Made by a program: the position numbers and the translations under genes. The notes beneath the pieces are model-generated. The model was not told the origin of the DNA. It worked only from the letters and a program-made list of their open reading frames with translations, and made no database searches. A stretch of DNA of 64,000 bases from Pseudomonadota bacterium. Lineage in GTDB: Bacteria > Pseudomonadota > Alphaproteobacteria > JACQOE01. Where the stretch lies: positions 10,354-74,353 of the forward strand of contig JACQOE010000023.1 in NCBI GenBank assembly GCA_016202695.1, given 5' to 3'. Shown piece after piece: positions 37,886 to 56,343 of the stretch (positions within the stretch are counted from its first letter, which is position 1; the number at the start of each line of letters is the position of its first letter).

Positions 37886-37994
37886 CGCCCGGCCCAGAAG
37901 TTCTTGCCCGCGAGGGGGCGGAATTTTCCTTTTCCTGTCTCACGGGCGATTTGAAAAGTTATTTATTTTCATTGAGTTAGATTGATCTTCCCGG

Positions 37995-38010
37995 TGGCCC
38001 GGGGCTTGCT
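37995..38010 (+). promoter_or_regulatory. sigma54 (-24/-12) promoter of fliK-flgD-flgE
   Basis: TGGCCC-GGGGC-TTGCT with correct spacing, about 56 nt upstream of ATG 38066. Preceded by a conspicuous AT-rich tract at 37940-37990. Confidence 0.65.
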
Positions 38011-38065
38011 CCATCCCCCTCGGCATCACGCCGCGGAAGGCAAGAGCCTCAGGACACACCACACC

Positions 38066-39853
38066 ATGACCATCCCCCCGCTGGAGACGACCAGTCCGTT
38101 CGAGGCCCTCGGCATCCCGGTCAAGACGGGTCCGCAGGGCCCCGCCTTCTCCGACTTCCTGAGGGCGGCGACGGATCGCGCCTTCGAGCCGACCGAGCCG
38201 CTGCGCGAGCGGGTGGAGGAGACGGCCGGCGCCGCCGATCGCCCGCGGCACGAGGAGCGGGCCGACCGGGACACGCGCCGGGCCGCGGACCGCGATCGCG
38301 CCGACGAGCCGGCGGCGGGCGCGCGGAAGCGCGACCGCGAGACGAGCCCCGAGGCCGAGCGCGCCCGCGGGCACGACGAGGCCGGGCCGGGCGACGAGTC
38401 GCGCCGGCCCGAGGCGCCGCCTCGGCGCGAGCCGGCCCGGGCGCGCGACGAGACCCGCTCCGGCGACGAGACGGGCCCCGCCGACAAGGCCGAGGCCGAG
38501 TCCGTCGCCACATCCGCGCCGGCCTCCGTCACCGACATCCCGGCCGCAGCCGGCGCCGTGCCCCTCACGGGCGCGCTCGCCGCGGCCGCCGCCGGTGCCG
38601 CCCCGACCTCGACTCCGGGCGCCGACGTGAGCGGCCTGGTCGCAGCGGCGGTGCTCAACGAGATCCACCAGGCCCAGGGCGCCCGCCCCGGGCCGGTCCC
38701 CGCGGCCGCCGTCGGCGGGCCCGCGACGCTGGTTTCGCCGACCGCCCTCCTGGCTGCCGGCGCCGGCGAGGGCGAGGCTCCCGCCGCCCCGCAGCCCGGC
38801 ACCGCCGAGGGCCAACAGGTCGAGGTCATCCGCACCGGCCTCGCCGCCACCGCGCAGGCCGCGGTCGAGCAGCTCAAGGAGCGCCTTGCGCGGCCCGGTG
38901 AGGGCCAGCGCCCGGCGTCCGGCGAGCGCGTCGGCGTCAAGGTCGAGGTCGCCCGCGCCGGCGAGCAGATGGTTTCGCGGCCGTCCGCCAGCCTCGCCCC
39001 GAACGCGGCCCTGGCCGCGGCCGAGGCCGAGGGCGATGAGGGCGACGCGCAGCCCGGCTCGGCTCACGCCCTCGGCAAGGGCGAGTCCCGGCCCGGCACC
39101 GCTGCCGGCGCCGCCGGGCCGGCGACCCCGGGCCCGCAGCGCGACGCCGCCCCCGGCCAGCCCGACCCCAACCCCGCCGCCGGGCGTGCGTCCTTTGCCC
39201 CGCTCCCGGGGACGGCCGAGGGCGAGCGGGCCGTGCGCGCCCGCGCCGAGAGCCGACCCGGCTTCTCCCCGGCCGCTGGACCGACCGCCGAGCCCGGCCG
39301 ACCTGCCGGGGCGACGGGCGGATCGGACGGTGCCGCCCCGGCCGGCGGCGCATTCGCGCCGAGCGCGCCCGCCGGCGCCGCCTCGACCGGCGCCTCGCAG
39401 GCCGGGCGTCCGCCCCTGCCCCCGCCGGCCGTTTCCCAGCAGGTGGCGGTCCACATCCTCAAGGCGGTGGACCAGGGCAGCGACCGGATCAGCATTCAGC
39501 TCCGCCCCGAGTCGCTCGGCCGGGTGGACGTGCGGCTCGATGTCGGCCACGACGGCCGGGTGAGCGCGATGATCAGCGCCGAGAGGCCGGAGACGCTGGA
39601 GCTCTTGCAGCGCGATGCGCGGAGCCTCGAGCGGGCGTTGCAGGACGCCGGCCTCGGCGCCGACTCGAATTCGCTCAGCTTCAACTTGCTCGGGCGCGGC
39701 TCGCGCGAGCCGGGCTTCGGGCGCGATCTGGCCGGGGTCGGCCTCGATGCCCCGCTCGGGCCTGAGGCCGACGAGGCTCCGATCGAGGTCACCCAGGTCG
39801 ACGGCGCGAGCTACGTCAGCCGCGGCGCCGGCGGCGTGGACATCCGCGTCTGA
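38066..39853 (+). CDS. fliK: Hook-length control protein FliK
   Basis: Internal ATG 38066. Pro/Ala-rich centre. C-terminal Flg_hook-type SDRISIQLRPESLGRVDVRLDVGHDGRVSAMISAERPETLELLQRDARSLERALQDAGL. Confidence 0.85.
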   Translation: MTIPPLETTSPFEALGIPVKTGPQGPAFSDFLRAATDRAFEPTEPLRERVEETAGAADRPRHEERADRDTRRAADRDRADEPAAGARKRDRETSPEAERARGHDEAGPGDESRRPEAPPRREPARARDETRSGDETGPADKAEAESVATSAPASVTDIPAAAGAVPLTGALAAAAAGAAPTSTPGADVSGLVAAAVLNEIHQAQGARPGPVPAAAVGGPATLVSPTALLAAGAGEGEAPAAPQPGTAEGQQVEVIRTGLAATAQAAVEQLKERLARPGEGQRPASGERVGVKVEVARAGEQMVSRPSASLAPNAALAAAEAEGDEGDAQPGSAHALGKGESRPGTAAGAAGPATPGPQRDAAPGQPDPNPAAGRASFAPLPGTAEGERAVRARAESRPGFSPAAGPTAEPGRPAGATGGSDGAAPAGGAFAPSAPAGAASTGASQAGRPPLPPPAVSQQVAVHILKAVDQGSDRISIQLRPESLGRVDVRLDVGHDGRVSAMISAERPETLELLQRDARSLERALQDAGLGADSNSLSFNLLGRGSREPGFGRDLAGVGLDAPLGPEADEAPIEVTQVDGASYVSRGAGGVDIRV

Positions 39854-47756: not shown

Positions 47757-49139
<1,383 letters not shown>

Positions 49140-49181: not shown

Positions 49182-51299
49182 ATGGCCGATACACCGACAG
49201 GAACAGCGGTCGCCACGACCGGGCGCCAGACCCTCGACCGGTTCGTCGACGCGCTGCGCCGGGGGGACATCGCGCTCGCCATCGGCGTCATCGCCATCCT
49301 GGTCGTCCTCATCCTGCCGATGCCGAAATGGCTGCTCGACTTCTCGCTCGCCCTCTCGATCACCTTCTCGGTGATGATCCTGATGACAGCGGTGTTCGTC
49401 GAGAAGCCGCTCCAGTTCAGCTCGTTCCCGACCGTGCTCCTGATCGCGACGATGATGCGGCTCTCGCTCAACCTCGCCTCGACCCGCCTGATCCTCGCCG
49501 ACGGGCACACCGGGACCGACGCCGCCGGCAAGGTGATCCAGGCCTTCGGCGGTTTCGTCATGAGCGGCAACTTCGTCATCGGCATCATCGTCTTCTCGAT
49601 CCTGGTGATCGTGAACTTCGTGGTCATCACCAAGGGCTCGGGGCGCATCGCCGAGGTCTCCGCCCGCTTCAACCTCGACGCCATGCCGGGCAAGCAGATG
49701 GCGATCGACGCCGACCTCTCGGCCGGGCTGATCGACGAGGCCGACGCCCGGCGGCGGCGCAAGGAGCTGGAGGAGGAGAGTGCCTTCTTCGGGGCCATGG
49801 ACGGCGCCGCCAAGTTCGTCCGCGGCGACGCCATCGCCGGGCTGCTCATCACCTTCATCAACATCGTCGGCGGCATGATCATCGGCGTCGTCCAGCACGG
49901 CCTGACCATGTCGCGGGCGGCCGAGTCCTACACCCTGCTCACCGTCGGCGACGGGCTGGTGACCCAGATCCCGGCGATCGTGGTCTCCACTGCCGCCGGC
50001 CTGGTGGTGACCAAGGCCGGGATCGAGGGCTCGACCAACCGCACCCTGATCAGCCAGTTCGGGGCGTTCCCGCGCGGGCTGGGTCTGGTTTCCGCGCTCT
50101 CCGTCACCCTCGCCCTTCTCCCTGGGATGCCGCTCGCCCCGTTCATGCTCCTCGCCGCGGCCACCGGCGCTGGGGCGTGGCTGACCTCGCGCCGGCAGGC
50201 CGAGGTCGAGACGCGCAAGGCCGAGGTCGAGGCCGAGGAGCGTCGGGCCAAGGTCCCGGTCGCCGAGGAGGCGATTTCGACCGCGCTCAGGATCGACCTC
50301 ATCCGCCTCGAGCTCGGCTACGGGCTGCTGCCGCTGATCAACAGCGAGAAGGGCCAGAAGCTGACCGAGCAGATCCGCTCGCTCCGCCGCCAGCTCGCCG
50401 CCGAGATGGGCTTCGTCATGCCCTCGGTGCGCATCCAGGACAACATGCAGCTTCCGGCCAACACCTACGTGGTGCGGATCAAGGAGATCGACGCCGGGCG
50501 CGGCGACCTCAAGCCCAACGCCCTCTTGGTGATGGACCCGCGCGGCGAGGAGATCACCCTTCCCGGCGAGCAAACCGCGGAGCCCACCTTCGGGCTGCCG
50601 GCGATGTGGGTCGAGGAGAGCCACCGCGAGGAGGCGATGTTCCGCGGCTACACCGTCGTCGACCCGCAGACCGTGATCACCACCCATCTCACCGAGGTGA
50701 TCAAGGAGAACATGCCGGAGCTCTTGTCCTACGCCGAGACCCAGAAGCTGCTCGACGATCTCGACAAGGAGCACCAGAAGCTGGTTTCCGACATCGTCCC
50801 CAGCCAGATCACCGTCGGCGGCATCCAGCGGGTGCTCCAGAACCTGCTCCGCGAGCGCATCTCGATCCGCGATCTGCCCACCATCCTCGAGGGCATCTCC
50901 GAGGCCTGCGGGCACACCCGCAACATCATGCTGATCACCGAGCACGTGCGCTCGCGCCTCGCGCTCCAGCTCTCCAACGCCTACACCAACGAGCAAGGCT
51001 TCATCCCGCTCATCACCCTCTCCGCCGACTGGGAGCAGGCCTTCGCCGAGTCGCTGGCGGGCACGGGCGAGGAGCGCCAGCTGTCGATGGCCCCCTCGCG
51101 GCTGCAGGACTTCATCAACCACGTCCGCCAGACCTTCGAGCGCCACGCCATGATGGGCGAGTCCCCGGTGCTGCTCACCAGCCCGATCCTGCGCCCCTAC
51201 GTGCGCTCGATCATCGAGCGCTTCCGCCCCTCGACCACGGTGATGTCGCAGAACGAGATCCACCCCAAGGCGCGGATCAAGACCCTGGGGTCCATCTAG
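49182..51299 (+). CDS. flhA: Flagellar export gate protein FlhA
   Basis: FPTVLLIATMMRLSLNLASTRLIL, AEVSARFNLDAMPGKQMAIDADL, and a C-terminal cytoplasmic domain. 705 aa. Confidence 0.95.
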   Translation: MADTPTGTAVATTGRQTLDRFVDALRRGDIALAIGVIAILVVLILPMPKWLLDFSLALSITFSVMILMTAVFVEKPLQFSSFPTVLLIATMMRLSLNLASTRLILADGHTGTDAAGKVIQAFGGFVMSGNFVIGIIVFSILVIVNFVVITKGSGRIAEVSARFNLDAMPGKQMAIDADLSAGLIDEADARRRRKELEEESAFFGAMDGAAKFVRGDAIAGLLITFINIVGGMIIGVVQHGLTMSRAAESYTLLTVGDGLVTQIPAIVVSTAAGLVVTKAGIEGSTNRTLISQFGAFPRGLGLVSALSVTLALLPGMPLAPFMLLAAATGAGAWLTSRRQAEVETRKAEVEAEERRAKVPVAEEAISTALRIDLIRLELGYGLLPLINSEKGQKLTEQIRSLRRQLAAEMGFVMPSVRIQDNMQLPANTYVVRIKEIDAGRGDLKPNALLVMDPRGEEITLPGEQTAEPTFGLPAMWVEESHREEAMFRGYTVVDPQTVITTHLTEVIKENMPELLSYAETQKLLDDLDKEHQKLVSDIVPSQITVGGIQRVLQNLLRERISIRDLPTILEGISEACGHTRNIMLITEHVRSRLALQLSNAYTNEQGFIPLITLSADWEQAFAESLAGTGEERQLSMAPSRLQDFINHVRQTFERHAMMGESPVLLTSPILRPYVRSIIERFRPSTTVMSQNEIHPKARIKTLGSI

Positions 51300-51314: not shown

Positions 51315-52325
51315 ATGCGGCTCAAGATCTTCACCGCCCCCACCATGGCCCAGGCCATGGCCCAGGTGCGCCGCGAGCTGGGCGAGGACGCGATCATCGT
51401 CTCCAGCCAGCGGGTGCCCAAGGGGCGGGGATTCCGCATCACCGCCGCCCTCGAGAGCGAGGGGGAGGCAGGGCTGGCCGCCCCCGCCGGGCCGGGGCGC
51501 GGCGAGGCGGTGGACAGCATCCGCCAGACGCTCGCCTACCACGGCATCGCCGGCGACCTCGCCGAGCGGCTGCTGAAGACCGTCGAGGCCCTCGATCTTG
51601 CCGACCCCGTGATGCCGCTCGCCGGCGCCATCGAGGCGAGCTTCAGCTTCGCGCCCCTGCCCGAGCGCCTCGGCGAGCGCCCCTTCGCCTTCATCGGCAC
51701 GCCCGGCTCCGGCAAGACGACGATGGTGGCGAAGCTCGCCGCGAGGGCGGTGATCGCCGGCCGGCCGGTGCGCGTTATCACCACCGACACGATACGTGCC
51801 GGCGCAGTGGCCCAGCTTGGCGCGATCGCCCGCGTCCTCAAGCTCGAGCTCGGCGAGGCCAAGACGCCCGCCGATCTCACCAGGGAGGTCAAGGCCCTCG
51901 CCGCCGGCACCCTCACCTTCATCGATACCCAGGCGGCCAACCCCTACGACCCCGAGACCACCGCCCCGTTGCGCTCCTTCATCGAGGCGGCCGAGGCCGA
52001 GGCGGTGCTCGTCCATCCCGCCGGAACCGAGGTCAGGGAGTCGGCGGAGGTGGCCGAGATCTTCGCCCGCCTGGGCGCCACCCGGCTGGTCGCCACCCGG
52101 GTCGATGCCGCGCGCCGCCTGGGCGGGCTCCTCGCCGGAGCCGACGCCGCCGGACTGATGTTCAGCGAGGTGAGCGCGAGCGCGAAGATCGCCGGCGGCC
52201 TCAAGCCCTTGAGCCCGCTCCTCCTCGCCCGCCTGCTCTTCACCGGCGACCTGCCGGCGCCGAGCGCCGCCGCCCCGGACAAGCCGAGCCGGGGCAGGAC
52301 CTCCCATTCCGAGGCCGTAACATGA
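51315..52325 (+). CDS. flhF: SRP-type GTPase FlhF
   Basis: FIGTPGSGKTTMVAKLAA, ITTDTIRAGAVAQL, FIDTQAANPYD G-motifs. Follows flhA. Confidence 0.85.
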   Translation: MRLKIFTAPTMAQAMAQVRRELGEDAIIVSSQRVPKGRGFRITAALESEGEAGLAAPAGPGRGEAVDSIRQTLAYHGIAGDLAERLLKTVEALDLADPVMPLAGAIEASFSFAPLPERLGERPFAFIGTPGSGKTTMVAKLAARAVIAGRPVRVITTDTIRAGAVAQLGAIARVLKLELGEAKTPADLTREVKALAAGTLTFIDTQAANPYDPETTAPLRSFIEAAEAEAVLVHPAGTEVRESAEVAEIFARLGATRLVATRVDAARRLGGLLAGADAAGLMFSEVSASAKIAGGLKPLSPLLLARLLFTGDLPAPSAAAPDKPSRGRTSHSEAVT

Positions 52326-53116
52326 ATCAAACCGCATCCTCGCCCGCCCCCGCCGCCGGCCCCGCCGCGCTCCCGCGCGGGCGCAACATCATCGCCGTCG
52401 CCTCCGGCAAGGGCGGGGTGGGCAAGACCTGGTTCGCGATCACCCTCGCCCACGGCTTCGCCCGGCTCGGACGCCGCGCGCTCCTCTTCGACGCCGACCT
52501 CGGCCTCGCCAACGTCGACATCCAGCTCGGGCTGATGCCCAAGCACGACCTCTCGGGCGTGCTCGCCGGGCGGCTGACCCTCGCCCAGGCGACGATCACT
52601 TACGCCGAGGGCGGGTTCGACATCGTCGCCGGGCGCTCCGGCTCGGCCGGCCTTGCCAGCGTTCCCACCAGCCGCCTGCAGACGCTGGGCGACGACCTGG
52701 GCGCGCTCGCCGCGGGCTACGACCGGGTGATCCTCGACCTCGGCGCCGGGGTCGAGCGCACGGTGCGGCAGATGACCGCCCATGCCGGGCTCTGCATCGT
52801 CATCACCACCGAGGAGCCGACCGCGCTCACCGACGCCTACGCTTTCATCAAGCTCACCGCCATGGAGCGCCCCTCGACCGACCTCCGGGTGGTGGTCAAC
52901 ATGGCGGCCAATCCGCGCTCCGGAGAGCGCACCTACAAGACGCTGCTCAAGGCCTGTGAGGGGTTCCTCAAGATCTCGCCGCCGCTGGTCGGCGTCGTTC
53001 GCCAGGACGACAAGGTCCGCGACGCGATCCGCAACCAGACCGCGCTCCTCACCCGCCACCCAACCTGCGCCGCCGCCGGCGACGTCGAGGCGATCGTTAG
53101 GAAGCTCCTGGAATGA
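52322..53116 (+). CDS. flhG: MinD/ParA-type ATPase FlhG (FleN)
   Basis: ATG 52322 overlaps the flhF stop (ATGA). Deviant Walker A IAVASGKGGVGKT. LFDADLGLANVD. Confidence 0.85.
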   Translation: MNQTASSPAPAAGPAALPRGRNIIAVASGKGGVGKTWFAITLAHGFARLGRRALLFDADLGLANVDIQLGLMPKHDLSGVLAGRLTLAQATITYAEGGFDIVAGRSGSAGLASVPTSRLQTLGDDLGALAAGYDRVILDLGAGVERTVRQMTAHAGLCIVITTEEPTALTDAYAFIKLTAMERPSTDLRVVVNMAANPRSGERTYKTLLKACEGFLKISPPLVGVVRQDDKVRDAIRNQTALLTRHPTCAAAGDVEAIVRKLLE

Positions 53117-53131
53117 CGCCCTGATCGGCCC

Positions 53132-54841
53132 ATGACCTCGGTCACGCCCCCGCTCGCGATCCCGCAGCCGCCGACGGCGGCCCAGCAGCCGGTCACGCTT
53201 GCGCTCGCCGAGGCGTCGAAGGCGGTGCGGGCGCTGGCGGTCGGAAGCCTGCTCAGCGGCGAGGTGGCGCAGGTGCGCGAGGGGCTGGTGGCGCTGCGCA
53301 CGCCATTGGGCCCGGTGGCCCTGGCGGCCAACCTCTCCGTCGCCGTCGGCGCCCATCTCACCCTCAGGATCGCCGCCGGCGGCGAGCGCGGGCAGGTGCA
53401 GCTCCTCGCCCTCGGCGACCGTCCCGTGGTCGGCCTCCGCGGCGCCAGCCTGCTGGTCAAGGGCGCCGTCCCCACCGGGGCGATCGCCACCGCCGCCGCC
53501 GCGACCGTGGGCGCGGGCGTGAGGGCGGCCATCGCTCCGCTCGCCCCCGGAACCACGCTCGCCGCGACGCTCGTGCGCGCGCCTCCCACCGCCCCCGGCG
53601 CCGCGGCGCCGGCCCCGGCGTCGGCGCCGGGCGGGCTCGGCGCCGTCCTCGCCGCCGGCGCGCCGCTCTCGGTGCGGGTGCTCGCCGTCACCCCCACGGG
53701 GGCGGCCGGAGCGGCGACCCCGACGCCGGGCGCCCCCGCCCTCCAGCCCGGGCCGGGGCCGGCGGGTGCGGTCGTCGCCGCCACCGTGGTCGCCGCCGCC
53801 GGCGGCCAGACCCTGGTGCAGAGCCCGATCGGCTGGCTCTCGCTCGCCACCCCGGCGACGCTGCCGCTGGGCACCAGCCTGTCGCTCGAGATCACCGCCG
53901 GCGCGGTCGCCTCGCACGGCCCCGCCGAGCAGGGCGCCTCGGGCCCGGCGGGCGCGGCCCAGACGGCGGCGGCGGGCGCGACGCCGGCCGCCCCGGGGGC
54001 ATCACCTCCGCCCGCCGTTGCCACCGGCCTCTCGGGCCCGGGCCTGAGCGTCGCCGCCCAGAGCACCCTCCAGCAGGTTCCGGCGGCCGGGACCCCGGGC
54101 GCCGAGGCCGCCGCCGAGCGGCCGGCGCCGGCGGCGCCCGCCGGCGCGGCAACCGCGGCCGAGGAGTCGGCGCAGGTCCCTCGCCCCTGGCCGAGCCTGA
54201 CCGAGGCGGTGCGGCTCCTCGCCGCCGCCGAGCCGATGGCCTATCGACAGCTCCTGCAGGCGCTGCCCCAGCCCGGGCCGCAGCTCACCGCCAACGTCCT
54301 CTTCTTCCTCGTCGCGCTGCGCGGCGGCGACGTCAGGGCGTGGCTCGGCGAGGGGCCGCTGCGTGCGCTCGAGCGGGCGGGGCGGGGCGACCTCGTCGCC
54401 CGCCTGGGCGAGGAGTTCCGGCGGGGCGGCCGCGGCCTCGGCGAGCCCGCCGCGGGCGAGTGGCGGAGCGTCGGCCTTCCCTTCTTCACCGGCGCCGCGG
54501 TCGAGGAGGTGCGGCTTCACCTGCGCCGCCACGGCGAGGAGGCCGACGAGGAAGGCGGGCGCGGCGGCGGCGCCGAGACCCGCTTCGTGATCGACCTCGA
54601 CCTCTCCCGCCTCGGGCGCATGCAGCTCGACGGCTTCGTGCGCAAGGCGACCCGGCGCTTCGACCTGATCGTGCGCACGCGCGCGGCGCTGCCGGTCGCG
54701 ATGCGGGGCGAGATCAACCGCATCTTCTCCGAGTCCTGCGCCGCCACCGGCCTTGCCGGCGAGATCGGCTTCCAGGCCACGGCCCGGTTCGTCGAGGTCG
54801 AGCCCGCCCCGCCGGCCCGCCACGAGGGCATCCTGGCATGA
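53132..54841 (+). CDS. Unknown 569-aa protein with Pro/Ala-rich centre and FliK-like (Flg_hook-like) C-terminal module
   Basis: Three loosely repeated N-terminal beta-like segments (GEVAQVREGLVALRTPLG...GAHLTLRI etc.). C-terminal TRFVIDLDLSRLGRMQLDGFVRKATRRFDLIVRT resembles the FliK ISIQLRPESLGRVDVRL pattern. Starts 16 nt after flhG. Confidence 0.55.
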   Translation: MTSVTPPLAIPQPPTAAQQPVTLALAEASKAVRALAVGSLLSGEVAQVREGLVALRTPLGPVALAANLSVAVGAHLTLRIAAGGERGQVQLLALGDRPVVGLRGASLLVKGAVPTGAIATAAAATVGAGVRAAIAPLAPGTTLAATLVRAPPTAPGAAAPAPASAPGGLGAVLAAGAPLSVRVLAVTPTGAAGAATPTPGAPALQPGPGPAGAVVAATVVAAAGGQTLVQSPIGWLSLATPATLPLGTSLSLEITAGAVASHGPAEQGASGPAGAAQTAAAGATPAAPGASPPPAVATGLSGPGLSVAAQSTLQQVPAAGTPGAEAAAERPAPAAPAGAATAAEESAQVPRPWPSLTEAVRLLAAAEPMAYRQLLQALPQPGPQLTANVLFFLVALRGGDVRAWLGEGPLRALERAGRGDLVARLGEEFRRGGRGLGEPAAGEWRSVGLPFFTGAAVEEVRLHLRRHGEEADEEGGRGGGAETRFVIDLDLSRLGRMQLDGFVRKATRRFDLIVRTRAALPVAMRGEINRIFSESCAATGLAGEIGFQATARFVEVEPAPPARHEGILA

Positions 54842-55338
54842 GGGAGCCCCCCCGCCGCCGGCCCCGCGAGCCCATGCTCCCGGCCGCCGACGCGCCCGCG
54901 GACCGCGACGAGGACCGCGCCAGGCGCTTCGCCGCGATGGAGGCGCTGGCCGCGCGCCGGCGCCTCATCGTCCCCGCCCCCAATCCCAGCACCGGCGTCG
55001 ACTACATCGTCAGCCTGGAAGGCGAGCTCAAGGTGAGGGCGCTGCCGGCTCCGGTCGCGGTCACCCTCCGCTATGTGCCCGACCGCGAGGTGCTGCCGCC
55101 GGCCAGCCTCGCGACCTACTTCGCCGCCCTCGGCGAGGCGGCGTGGGCCTCGCTCGAGGAGCTGGCGGTGGCGCTGCTGACCGACCTCAGCAACGAGCTG
55201 GTCCCGCGCTGGCTGGAGGTGGTGGTGACGGCCGAGCTTCCCGGCGCCGACGCCTCCCGCATCCACCGCGTGATCCTTCAGGACCGCCAGCCCCGTTGGG
55301 ACAACCGTTGGCTGATCGGCCGCCTCGCCGCGGTGTGA
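54838..55338 (+). CDS. QueF/T-fold-like protein lacking the catalytic Cys (tentative)
   Basis: ATG overlaps the upstream stop (ATGA). NPSTGVDY...LRYVPDREVL..SLATYF...DLSNELVPRWLEVVV parallels QueF CPxTGQPDF...YIPD..ESKSLKLY...DL...PRYIEV, but with Asn for Cys and no ExK. Confidence 0.35.
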   Translation: MREPPRRRPREPMLPAADAPADRDEDRARRFAAMEALAARRRLIVPAPNPSTGVDYIVSLEGELKVRALPAPVAVTLRYVPDREVLPPASLATYFAALGEAAWASLEELAVALLTDLSNELVPRWLEVVVTAELPGADASRIHRVILQDRQPRWDNRWLIGRLAAV

Positions 55339-55377: not shown

Positions 55378-56343
55378 ATGAGACTGCGGCCTGCCGTCGT
55401 GGCGACGATCGCCCTTCTCGCCCTTGCCCCGGGGGCGGCCGGCGCCGAGGTCCGGATCGAGTCGTTCAGGCTGCCGGCGGGCGCCCATCCCCACGACGTG
55501 GCTCCCGCCCCCGACGGCGGCGTCTGGTACACGGCCCAGCATCAGGGCGCGCTCGGCCGGCTCGATCCCGCGACCGGCGAGGTGCGGCAGATTCCCTTGG
55601 GCGAGGGCTCGGCGCCGCACGGGGTGATCGTCGGCCCCGACGGCGCCCCCTGGATCACCGACGGCGGGCTCAACGCCATCGTCCGCGTCGATCCCCGGAG
55701 CCTGGCCGTGACCCGCTACCCGCTGCCCAAGGACACCGGCTACGCCAACCTCAACACCGCCGCCTTCGACCGCGCCGGGCGGCTGTGGTTCACCGGCCAG
55801 GGCGGCTATTACGGCCGGCTCGATCCCGCCTCGGGCGAGGTGCGGGTGTTCAAGGCCCCGCGCGGGCGGGGGCCCTACGGCATCGCCGCCACGCCCGAGG
55901 GCGAGGTCTACTACGCCTCGCTGGCGGGGAGCCACATCGCCCGCATCGACCTCGAGACCGGCGGGGCGAGCGTGATCGAGCCCCCCACCCCCGGCCAGGG
56001 GGCGCGCCGGGTGTGGGCGGACTCGAAGGGCCGGGTCTGGGTGAGCGAGTGGAACTCGGGCCAGGTGAGCGTGTTCGAGCCCGGGAGCGGGGCCTGGCGG
56101 AGCTGGAAGCTTCCGGGCGAGCGCCCGCGCGCCTACGCGGTGTACGTCGACGAGACGGACACGGTGTGGCTCTCCGACTTCGCCGCCAACGCGATTCTCC
56201 GCTTCGACCCCGAAAGCGGGCGCTTCGAGGTCTTCCCGAGCCCCCGCCCCGGGGCCGGGGTGCGCCAGATCCTGGGCCGGGCGGGCGAGGTGTGGGCGCC
56301 CGAGTCGGGCACCGACCACCTGGTCGTCTACCGCACGAAGTAG
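55378..56343 (+). CDS. Secreted beta-propeller protein, virginiamycin-B-lyase (Vgb)-like
   Basis: Signal peptide. Repeated blades with PHDVAPAPDGGVWYT, PHGVIVGPDGAPWITD, PYGIAATPEGEVYYAS, GRVWVSEW. Confidence 0.6.
   Translation: MRLRPAVVATIALLALAPGAAGAEVRIESFRLPAGAHPHDVAPAPDGGVWYTAQHQGALGRLDPATGEVRQIPLGEGSAPHGVIVGPDGAPWITDGGLNAIVRVDPRSLAVTRYPLPKDTGYANLNTAAFDRAGRLWFTGQGGYYGRLDPASGEVRVFKAPRGRGPYGIAATPEGEVYYASLAGSHIARIDLETGGASVIEPPTPGQGARRVWADSKGRVWVSEWNSGQVSVFEPGSGAWRSWKLPGERPRAYAVYVDETDTVWLSDFAANAILRFDPESGRFEVFPSPRPGAGVRQILGRAGEVWAPESGTDHLVVYRTK

Follow-up and report, generated by a model that had tools for sequence, protein, structure and literature searches.

A gene pair encoding a modular protein and a QueF-type T-fold protein without catalytic residues closes the early flagellar operon of Rhodospirillales-type alphaproteobacteria

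The window analysed here, a 64,000-nucleotide (nt) stretch of contig JACQOE010000023.1 (positions 10,354 to 74,353, forward strand) from an alphaproteobacterium of the GTDB lineage JACQOE01, carries two open reading frames (ORFs) directly downstream of the flagellar gene flhG, and we use P1 and P2 as working names for their products and for the corresponding ORF1 and ORF2 families. Both are real, co-inherited genes, and they close the early (class II) operon ...fliN-motA-flbD-flhA-(flhF)-flhG-P1-P2 of Rhodospirillales-type alphaproteobacteria. Profile comparison and structure prediction identify P2 as a genuine QueF-type T-fold protein. P1 is a long modular protein, and the two may act jointly on the polar flagellum, tuning its early assembly, its number or its placement.

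FlhF and FlhG are central regulators of flagellar position and number, and to our knowledge nearly all work on their mechanism comes from gammaproteobacteria, Campylobacter and Bacillus. A large alphaproteobacterial group, including the tractable plant-associated genus Azospirillum, ends its flhA-flhF-flhG operon with one or two extra conserved genes, which provide a concrete knock-out pair for the study of polar flagellation control in alphaproteobacteria. P2 is a clear case in which the fold of QueF, an enzyme of tRNA queuosine synthesis, appears to have been stripped of its chemistry and recruited to a motility operon, and it offers a test case for the roles of a dead T-fold protein. As judged by fold, P2 is a variant of the T-fold and P1 possibly one of the T3S4 domain, both of them unnamed though widespread.

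Distribution and gene order of the P1 and P2 families

At E≤1e-10, the P2 family comprises 420 representative clusters among 1.84 billion proteins, nearly all of them stand-alone proteins of 120-165 aa. We fetched 80 genomic P2 loci, from hosts which include Azospirillum brasilense, A. lipoferum-group species, Magnetovibrio blakemorei, Aestuariispira, Caenispirillum and Hwanghaeella, as well as many Thalassospiraceae and Rhodospirillales metagenome-assembled genomes, and counted neighbours in the 55 for which 5 kb or more of upstream sequence was available. All 55 have P1 immediately ahead of P2, and tblastn places flhA upstream in 54, flhG in 53, flbD in 48 and flhF in 38, so that the placement of both genes in the flhA-flhF-flhG operon, proposed in the preliminary description of this locus from the window alone, holds in its relatives. 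In most loci the two genes overlap by ATGA or are 5-35 nt apart. The conserved early operon also holds C-ring, MotA, FlbD and export-gate genes, and the hook genes are located elsewhere.

When 301 sampled alphaproteobacterial genomes representing 253 genera were scanned for both families, P1 proved to be the wider of the two: it was found, always in a single copy, in 118 genomes (102 genera), and full-length P2 in about 40. In each of 20 loci having P1 only, it follows flbD-flhA-(flhF-flhG). One species-level lineage contains a natural 816-aa fusion of the two proteins, in which the P1 C-terminal domain occupies residues 445-640 and the P2 domain residues 692-813. It is represented by three sequences 99.5-99.9% identical to each other (P0186/P0197/P0198), found on four contigs from three sources that include metagenome and NCBI assemblies.

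Neither family appears to have been described. RefSeq lists the two A. lipoferum 4B genes, AZOLI_RS19710 and AZOLI_RS19705 (products WP_014188891 and WP_014188890), which show the ATGA overlap, as “hypothetical protein”. P1 and P2 are not covered by any Pfam or NCBIfam family, and our literature search yielded no paper on either of them, nor on a flagellar protein that resembles QueF or has a T-fold, in agreement with the earlier remark that no flagellar role had been described for either.

A few loci depart from the usual layout. One clade has a CheR-like methyltransferase gene between P1 and P2 (locus L147, 7347-8291, minus strand; also L148-L150), and its P2 proteins do not have the C-terminal motif described below. 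In L146 (7343-8086, plus strand), P1 is shortened to 248 aa, corresponding to the T3S4-like half only, and is located between flhG and P2. The metagenomic relative L001 (3205-4518, minus strand) carries a DDE transposase of an insertion sequence (IS) between flhA and flhF, with the order of the other genes preserved.

P2 as a QueF-type T-fold protein without catalytic residues

The features of P2 discussed in this section are as follows.

54838..55338, plus strand: P2 (ORF2), QueF-type T-fold protein by profile and model, without catalytic residues; 166 aa in the ATGA reading
55156..55158, plus strand: codon of P2 Glu107, invariant in 86/86 sequences and aligned with the T-fold substrate-anchoring Glu97 of Bacillus subtilis QueF
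55279..55305, plus strand: C-terminal motif (E/Q)DRQPxWDN, family-specific and absent from QueF, with Q151, P152, W154 and N156 invariant

As a single sequence, the window protein matches the QueF families TIGR03139 (E=7e-5) and PF14489 (E=0.007) below their curated cut-offs (22.6 versus 86.9 bits and 16.9 versus 27.3 bits, respectively). A profile built from 86 sequences (the window protein, database homologues and 78 genomic loci) matches B. subtilis QueF (4FGC/4F8B) at E=3.5e-5, followed by weaker matches to archaeosine-synthase QueF-L (0.013) and GTP cyclohydrolase I (GCH-I, 0.11). The P2 profile also recovers housekeeping QueF from dozens of the 301 alphaproteobacterial genomes, with E-values of 1e-4 to 1e-10, and the window genome's own QueF is among the matches. 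The AlphaFold2 (AF2) model of P2, with a mean predicted local distance difference test (pLDDT) score of 90.5 and a predicted template-modelling (pTM) score of 0.84, displays the order beta-beta-alpha-alpha-beta-beta, and a Foldseek search of the PDB with this model places QueF on top (4fgc/4f8b, E=2.8e-7, TM 0.74/0.68), followed by FolE and QueF-L. On this combined evidence from profiles and predicted structure, the suggestion that ORF2 encodes a Cys-less pseudo-enzyme with a QueF/T-fold is upheld.

The correspondence with QueF extends to individual motifs. In the HMMER profile alignment with B. subtilis QueF, LRYVPD of P2 pairs with YIPD, SLATYF with SKSLKLY, and PRWLEV with PRYIEV, so that three of the four parallels drawn from the sequence by eye are recovered. 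The fourth, between NPSTGVDY and the catalytic loop CPKTGQPDF, is not: NPSTGVDY pairs instead with F-P-N-K-H-V-N-R-D-Y, upstream of that loop. The catalytic Cys is indeed absent, not through replacement by Asn as had been supposed, since the whole Cys/Asp loop is replaced; within a variable loop of P2, Leu64 stands where QueF has Cys55, and Ala71 where it has Asp62. The window protein contains no Cys at all, the family has no conserved Cys column, and 64 of its 86 members are Cys-free. The QueF motif E(S/L)K(S/L)(K/Y/F)(K/Y/L)(Y/F/W) is likewise missing, the aligned stretch being P-P-A-S-L-A-T-Y-F, of which only Y-(L/F) is conserved across the family. This ExK motif binds NADPH and not the substrate, as it had been labelled, and the Glu which anchors the substrate, by its guanine-like edge, in T-fold proteins is the residue that P2 keeps without exception. 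Sequence comparison thus depicts P2 as a QueF-derived protein in which neither the catalytic loop with its Cys and Asp nor the NADPH motif survives, the T-fold Glu is retained and a C-terminal motif of the family's own, (E/Q)DRQPxWDN, has been gained.

Comparison with unimodular QueF (YkvM, the preQ0 reductase represented by 4F8B/4FGC, PF14489 and TIGR03139) can therefore be drawn on both sides. P2 resembles it in T-fold and size, with QueF as its best structural match (TM 0.74), and in the motif pairs R-Y-V-P-D/Y-I-P-D, x-x-Y-L, the T-fold Glu and P-R-W-(L/V)-x-V/P-R-Y-I-E-V. It differs in having none of Cys55, Asp62 and the E-S-K-S-L-K-L-Y motif, in ending with (E/Q)DRQPxWDN, in scoring well under the family cut-offs, and in being encoded in a flagellar operon of a genome with a separate normal QueF. 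The latter is a bona fide PF14489 protein (E=6e-30). The second PF14489 match in the same genome was considered as a P2 paralogue and rejected, as it corresponds to FolE. Because a normal QueF and a FolE are both present elsewhere in the genome, P2 would be an extra, non-catalytic paralogue. The family is acidic, with a median pI of 5.2.

The start of P2 is uncertain. Initiation at ATG 54838 yields the 166-aa product and the ATGA overlap with P1 noted in the preliminary description; initiation at ATG 54937 (Met34) yields 133 aa and leaves a 95-nt gap after P1. Most family members are ~132 aa long, with the domain at residues 4-129, and the start at Met34 fits because of this typical length, yet many Azospirillum loci do show an ATGA-type overlap at a conserved start. 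Translational coupling of the two genes in the window is unproven.

Architecture of P1

The AF2 model of P1, built from a 26-sequence alignment, and the comparison of 41 homologues, none of them informatively named, divide the protein into the following segments.

53132..54841, plus strand: P1 (ORF1), 569-aa modular protein of an unnamed family, supported by the ORF and its homologues
53192..53431, plus strand: beta domain 1, a predicted small beta barrel (residues 21-100; AF2 pLDDT 82-95)
53438..54178, plus strand: Pro/Ala-rich linker (residues 103-349; pLDDT <50, predicted disordered)
53744-53896, plus strand: degenerate second beta-domain copy (about residues 205-255), seen as repeat segments within the linker
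54179..54433, plus strand: helical half of the C-terminal domain (residues 350-434; AF2 helices at 354-434, pLDDT 79-95)
54461..54778, plus strand: beta-beta-beta-alpha-beta half of the C-terminal domain (residues 444-549; AF2 strands and helix), remotely T3S4/Flg_hook-like

The long Pro/Ala region reported earlier corresponds to the linker, in which Ala, Pro and Gly make up 58% of residues. Three loosely repeated N-terminal segments had also been reported. Repetition is a genuine property of the family, as the N-terminal beta domain and the copy preceding the C-terminal domain are homologous family-wide (hhalign Prob 98%, E=4e-14), with the domain recurring once just ahead of the C-terminal domain in most members; of the middle “repeat” just a fragment is present. 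Hidden Markov models (HMMs) of the beta domains yielded no match in 30 alphaproteobacterial FliK loci. The C-terminal domain (residues 350-560, ~220 residues) is confidently modelled, with conserved motifs W..L.EA, LFFLAALRGGD and WLG in its helical half and with strand-strand-strand-helix-strand as the closing elements at 482-549.

The extreme N-terminus (53132-53170) follows a conserved pattern M-x-T-V-x-P-P-P-P-x-P-P, though it is predicted to be disordered. The peptide might serve in binding or export as a short linear motif.

The C-terminal domain was previously taken as an echo of the Flg_hook module of FliK. Pfam Flg_hook (PF02120) does not match the P1 of the window, Pfam and NCBIfam scans of P1 find no family, and P1 has no significant BLASTP match to the FliK of the window. 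This canonical FliK (Flg_hook E=1.4e-16) is encoded at about 37982-39853, and the distance between the two genes is 12-20 kb both here and in related genomes. With the 26-sequence P1 alignment, the hhalign match to FliK is out of register and meaningless. With a 74-sequence alignment, RFVIDLDLSRLGRMQLDG... is placed onto DRISIQLRPESLGRVDVRLDV... of alphaproteobacterial FliK, in register over 83 columns, as the preliminary description had proposed, and in agreement with predicted secondary structure; the match is weak (score 17.5, Prob <2%, P about 0.03), and the same score is reached by 4/200 column shuffles and 2/200 block shuffles of the FliK alignment, corresponding to an empirical P of ~0.01-0.02. 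A Foldseek search of the PDB with the P1 model produced no match at E≤0.001; it lists the substrate-specificity-switch domain of PscP (5cuk) with prob 0.97, TM 0.51 and a root-mean-square deviation of 3.1 over 70 columns, but with E=0.21. From the alignment register and the model together, the C-terminal domain likely adopts a T3S4-like fold outside the Flg_hook family.

A single P1 homologue, from genome G025 (C2:1908276-1908461, minus strand, locus L137), gave a chance-level Flg_hook match of 12.9 bits (E=0.28) at its C-terminal end, and was alone in this among the roughly 25 genomes with P1 that were scanned. The top Foldseek matches of P1, to RavZ, Ulp1 and other CE-clan proteases, were of low significance; a protease reading was dropped because no His or Cys is invariant in the family.

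Measured against the T3S4 proteins FliK, YscP and PscP, P1 shares the great length, the variable Pro-rich linker, the location in a flagellar cluster, the C-terminal succession, in P1 a predicted one, of strand-strand-strand-helix-strand and the L-G turn after strand 1. It differs from them in having no Pfam match and in possessing an extra conserved helical half-domain ahead of the module, and from FliK also in its repeated beta domains, which are not seen in alphaproteobacterial FliK, in its position in the class II flhA-flhG operon and in not being a sole hook-length controller encoded with hook genes.

FlhG and FlhF in P1-P2 loci

In Vibrio, Shewanella and Bacillus, the DQAxxLR motif of FlhG activates FlhF. 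An N-terminal motif of this type is absent from all 74 FlhG homologues from related loci, and likewise from FlhG of the window; FlhG proteins of this cluster type (the window and L037-L139) have short N-termini. Of the 53 P2 loci having flhG, 16 show no flhF in the interval that separates it from flhA (for example L037, L048, L049 and L087; also L006, Shumkonia mesophila), indicating that FlhG is retained without FlhF in many of these lineages; flhF is lacking in about 30% of the loci. We also considered whether P1 and P2 could stand in for FliX, the regulator of FlbD; this was rejected, as the window's genome encodes FliX.

The genes for ParA/MinD ATPases are usually found beside that of a partner, such as ParB, MinE, McdB or PomXY. 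P1 is comparable to ParB, MinE, McdB and PomX/PomY in that its gene lies directly downstream of an ATPase gene, and in that such partners are often largely disordered and have a conserved N-terminal peptide; the analogy is one of gene order only, and P1 also occurs without flhG. In gammaproteobacteria, FipA and HubP/FimV are needed, along with flhF/flhG, for placement of the polar flagellum (PMC11620751). Like them, P1 and P2 are lineage-specific and are linked to flhF/flhG, in their case by gene position only; unlike FipA and HubP, which are membrane-anchored, they have no predicted membrane segment, and there is no sequence or domain kinship.

Possible roles of P1 and P2

We propose, with a probability of roughly 0.4, that P1 and P2 are accessory factors tuning early polar flagellar assembly, number or placement. 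P1 would be a long flexible adaptor, made in the cytoplasm, whose C-terminal domain docks on the nascent export gate or basal body (the FlhA/FlhB side). P2 would be a non-catalytic, probably oligomeric T-fold module binding P1 and/or FlhG, and the two would exert this tuning jointly. That they may act together is suggested by the existence of the natural fusion. Several observations weigh against this proposal. In 3 of the 20 P1-only loci there is no flhF/flhG and P1 comes straight after flhA, and P2 is found without P1, including in several complete genomes, so that neither dependence is strict; a few P2 genes (L071, L074, L142 and L144) are located apart from flagellar genes altogether. The T3S4 similarity of P1 is below every database-level threshold: a genome scan with Flg_hook at E≤10 scores only the real FliK and not P1, none of 74 P1 homologue C-terminal domains matches it, and P1 HMM profiles run against PDB sequences return noise, with no FliK, PscP or YscP. 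Finally, the oligomeric state and the ligand binding supposed for P2 are carried over from other T-fold proteins and may not apply to it.

The main rival places the pair at FlhG. P1 would be a scaffold at the pole or an adaptor that activates the ATPase, with P2 as a cofactor, the two setting flagellar number and position where FlhG has lost the usual FlhF-activating helix. P1 does follow flhG immediately in 53 of 55 P2 loci and 17 of 20 P1-only loci, and where no P1 match is present, in four lineages (L077, L141, L143 and L145), it is P2 that directly follows flhG. The uniform absence of DQAxxLR from the 74 FlhG proteins, the 16 of 53 flhG loci without flhF, the conserved M-x-T-V-x-P-P-P peptide of P1 and the general habit of ParA/MinD ATPase genes to neighbour those of their partners all point in the same direction. 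The three loci that keep P1 after flhA with no nearby flhF/flhG are difficult to accommodate, however, and P1 lacks an anchor like that of HubP/FimV, whether to membrane or to peptidoglycan. We regard an FlhG-directed role as a serious possibility, albeit a doubtful one. It can be extended by supposing that P2 is a ligand-sensing pseudo-enzyme, whose retained Glu pocket would accept a guanine-like ligand (a pterin, preQ0/preQ1, or GTP or a nucleotide related to it) and which, with P1, would signal to FlhG-dependent flagellar control, the pair replacing the FlhF-activation circuit because FlhG has no DQAxxLR helix and flhF is often absent; in this extended form the scheme seems to us improbable.

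The preliminary description favoured a second FliK-like protein, and its developed form, with P1 as a secreted ruler or export-specificity switch of the FliK type and P2 as its export chaperone, is less likely than a partnership with FlhG, and we would assign it little weight. The P1 layout of N-terminal part, variable Pro-rich linker and C-terminal beta-beta-beta-alpha-beta module is what such a ruler would have, L-x-x-L-G of P1 stands in register with P-x-x-L-G of FliK, the PscP T3S4 domain appears in the Foldseek output at E=0.21, and P2 is small, acidic, tightly coupled to P1 and known as a fusion with it. The genome and its relatives already possess a canonical FliK, though, Flg_hook fails to detect any of the 74 P1 members, P1 belongs to the class II operon, apart from the hook genes, and its beta domains are not detected in alphaproteobacterial FliKs. 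The chaperone part is further weakened because several complete genomes possess P2 and have no P1; no type III secretion chaperone is known to have a T-fold, and a covalent fusion of chaperone and substrate would be odd. Designation of P1 as “FliK-like” is therefore weakly supported: the alignment register speaks for it at Prob <2%, and the Flg_hook profile does not. Overall, the observations made from the sequence are confirmed and the interpretation given to them is partly supported, with the FliK claim overstated.

T-fold enzymes are chemically versatile, and P2 might still be an enzyme or small-molecule binder of deazapurine or pterin metabolism that hitch-hikes in the operon, with P1 unrelated to it. 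The invariant T-fold Glu and the few P2 genes away from flagellar genes would suit such a role. It is nevertheless very unlikely in view of the loss of Cys55, Asp62 and the QueF motif, the normal QueF in the same genome, the near-universal flagellar synteny across 420 clusters and many families, and the P1-P2 fusion in one lineage. That either ORF, or both, arose by chance in a region of 75-85% G+C, as the long spurious ORFs overlapping it in all frames might suggest, is refuted by protein-level homologues in hundreds of genomes, with shared motifs and synteny, and by the confident AF2 models; we consider the probability of this negligible.

Gene string and neighbouring genes in the window

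The G+C content of the region reaches 70-85%, and many spurious ORFs overlap in all frames. In spite of these, the plus strand displays one clear gene string, in which P1 and P2 are preceded by four genes.

47757..49139, plus strand: flbD-like gene for a sigma54-dependent activator (ORF; homologues in relatives have Sigma54_activat/HTH_8; tblastn)
49182..51299, plus strand: flhA, FHIPEP export gate (ORF; FHIPEP domain in syntenic genes)
51315..52325, plus strand: flhF, GTPase of the signal recognition particle (SRP) type (ORF; SRP54 domain in syntenic genes)
52322..53116, plus strand: flhG, MinD/ParA-type ATPase (Pfam CbiA/ParA/AAA_31; ATGA overlap with flhF)

The flhG stop codon is TGA at 53114-53116, and P1, whose earlier placement as a 569-aa ORF at 53132-54841 stands, begins 15 nt further on, not 16 as first counted. 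No sigma70-like promoter or terminator-like site was seen from flhA to the end of P2, and no sigma54-like promoter past 48442 up to the same point. Downstream of P2, after 39 nt, comes a gene at 55378-56343 which encodes a beta-propeller of the Vgb-lyase/SGL type with an N-terminal hydrophobic leader. It is not kept at this position in relatives, indicating that the conserved unit closes with P2. The beta-propeller gene is preceded by a strong Shine-Dalgarno sequence, AAGGAGG.

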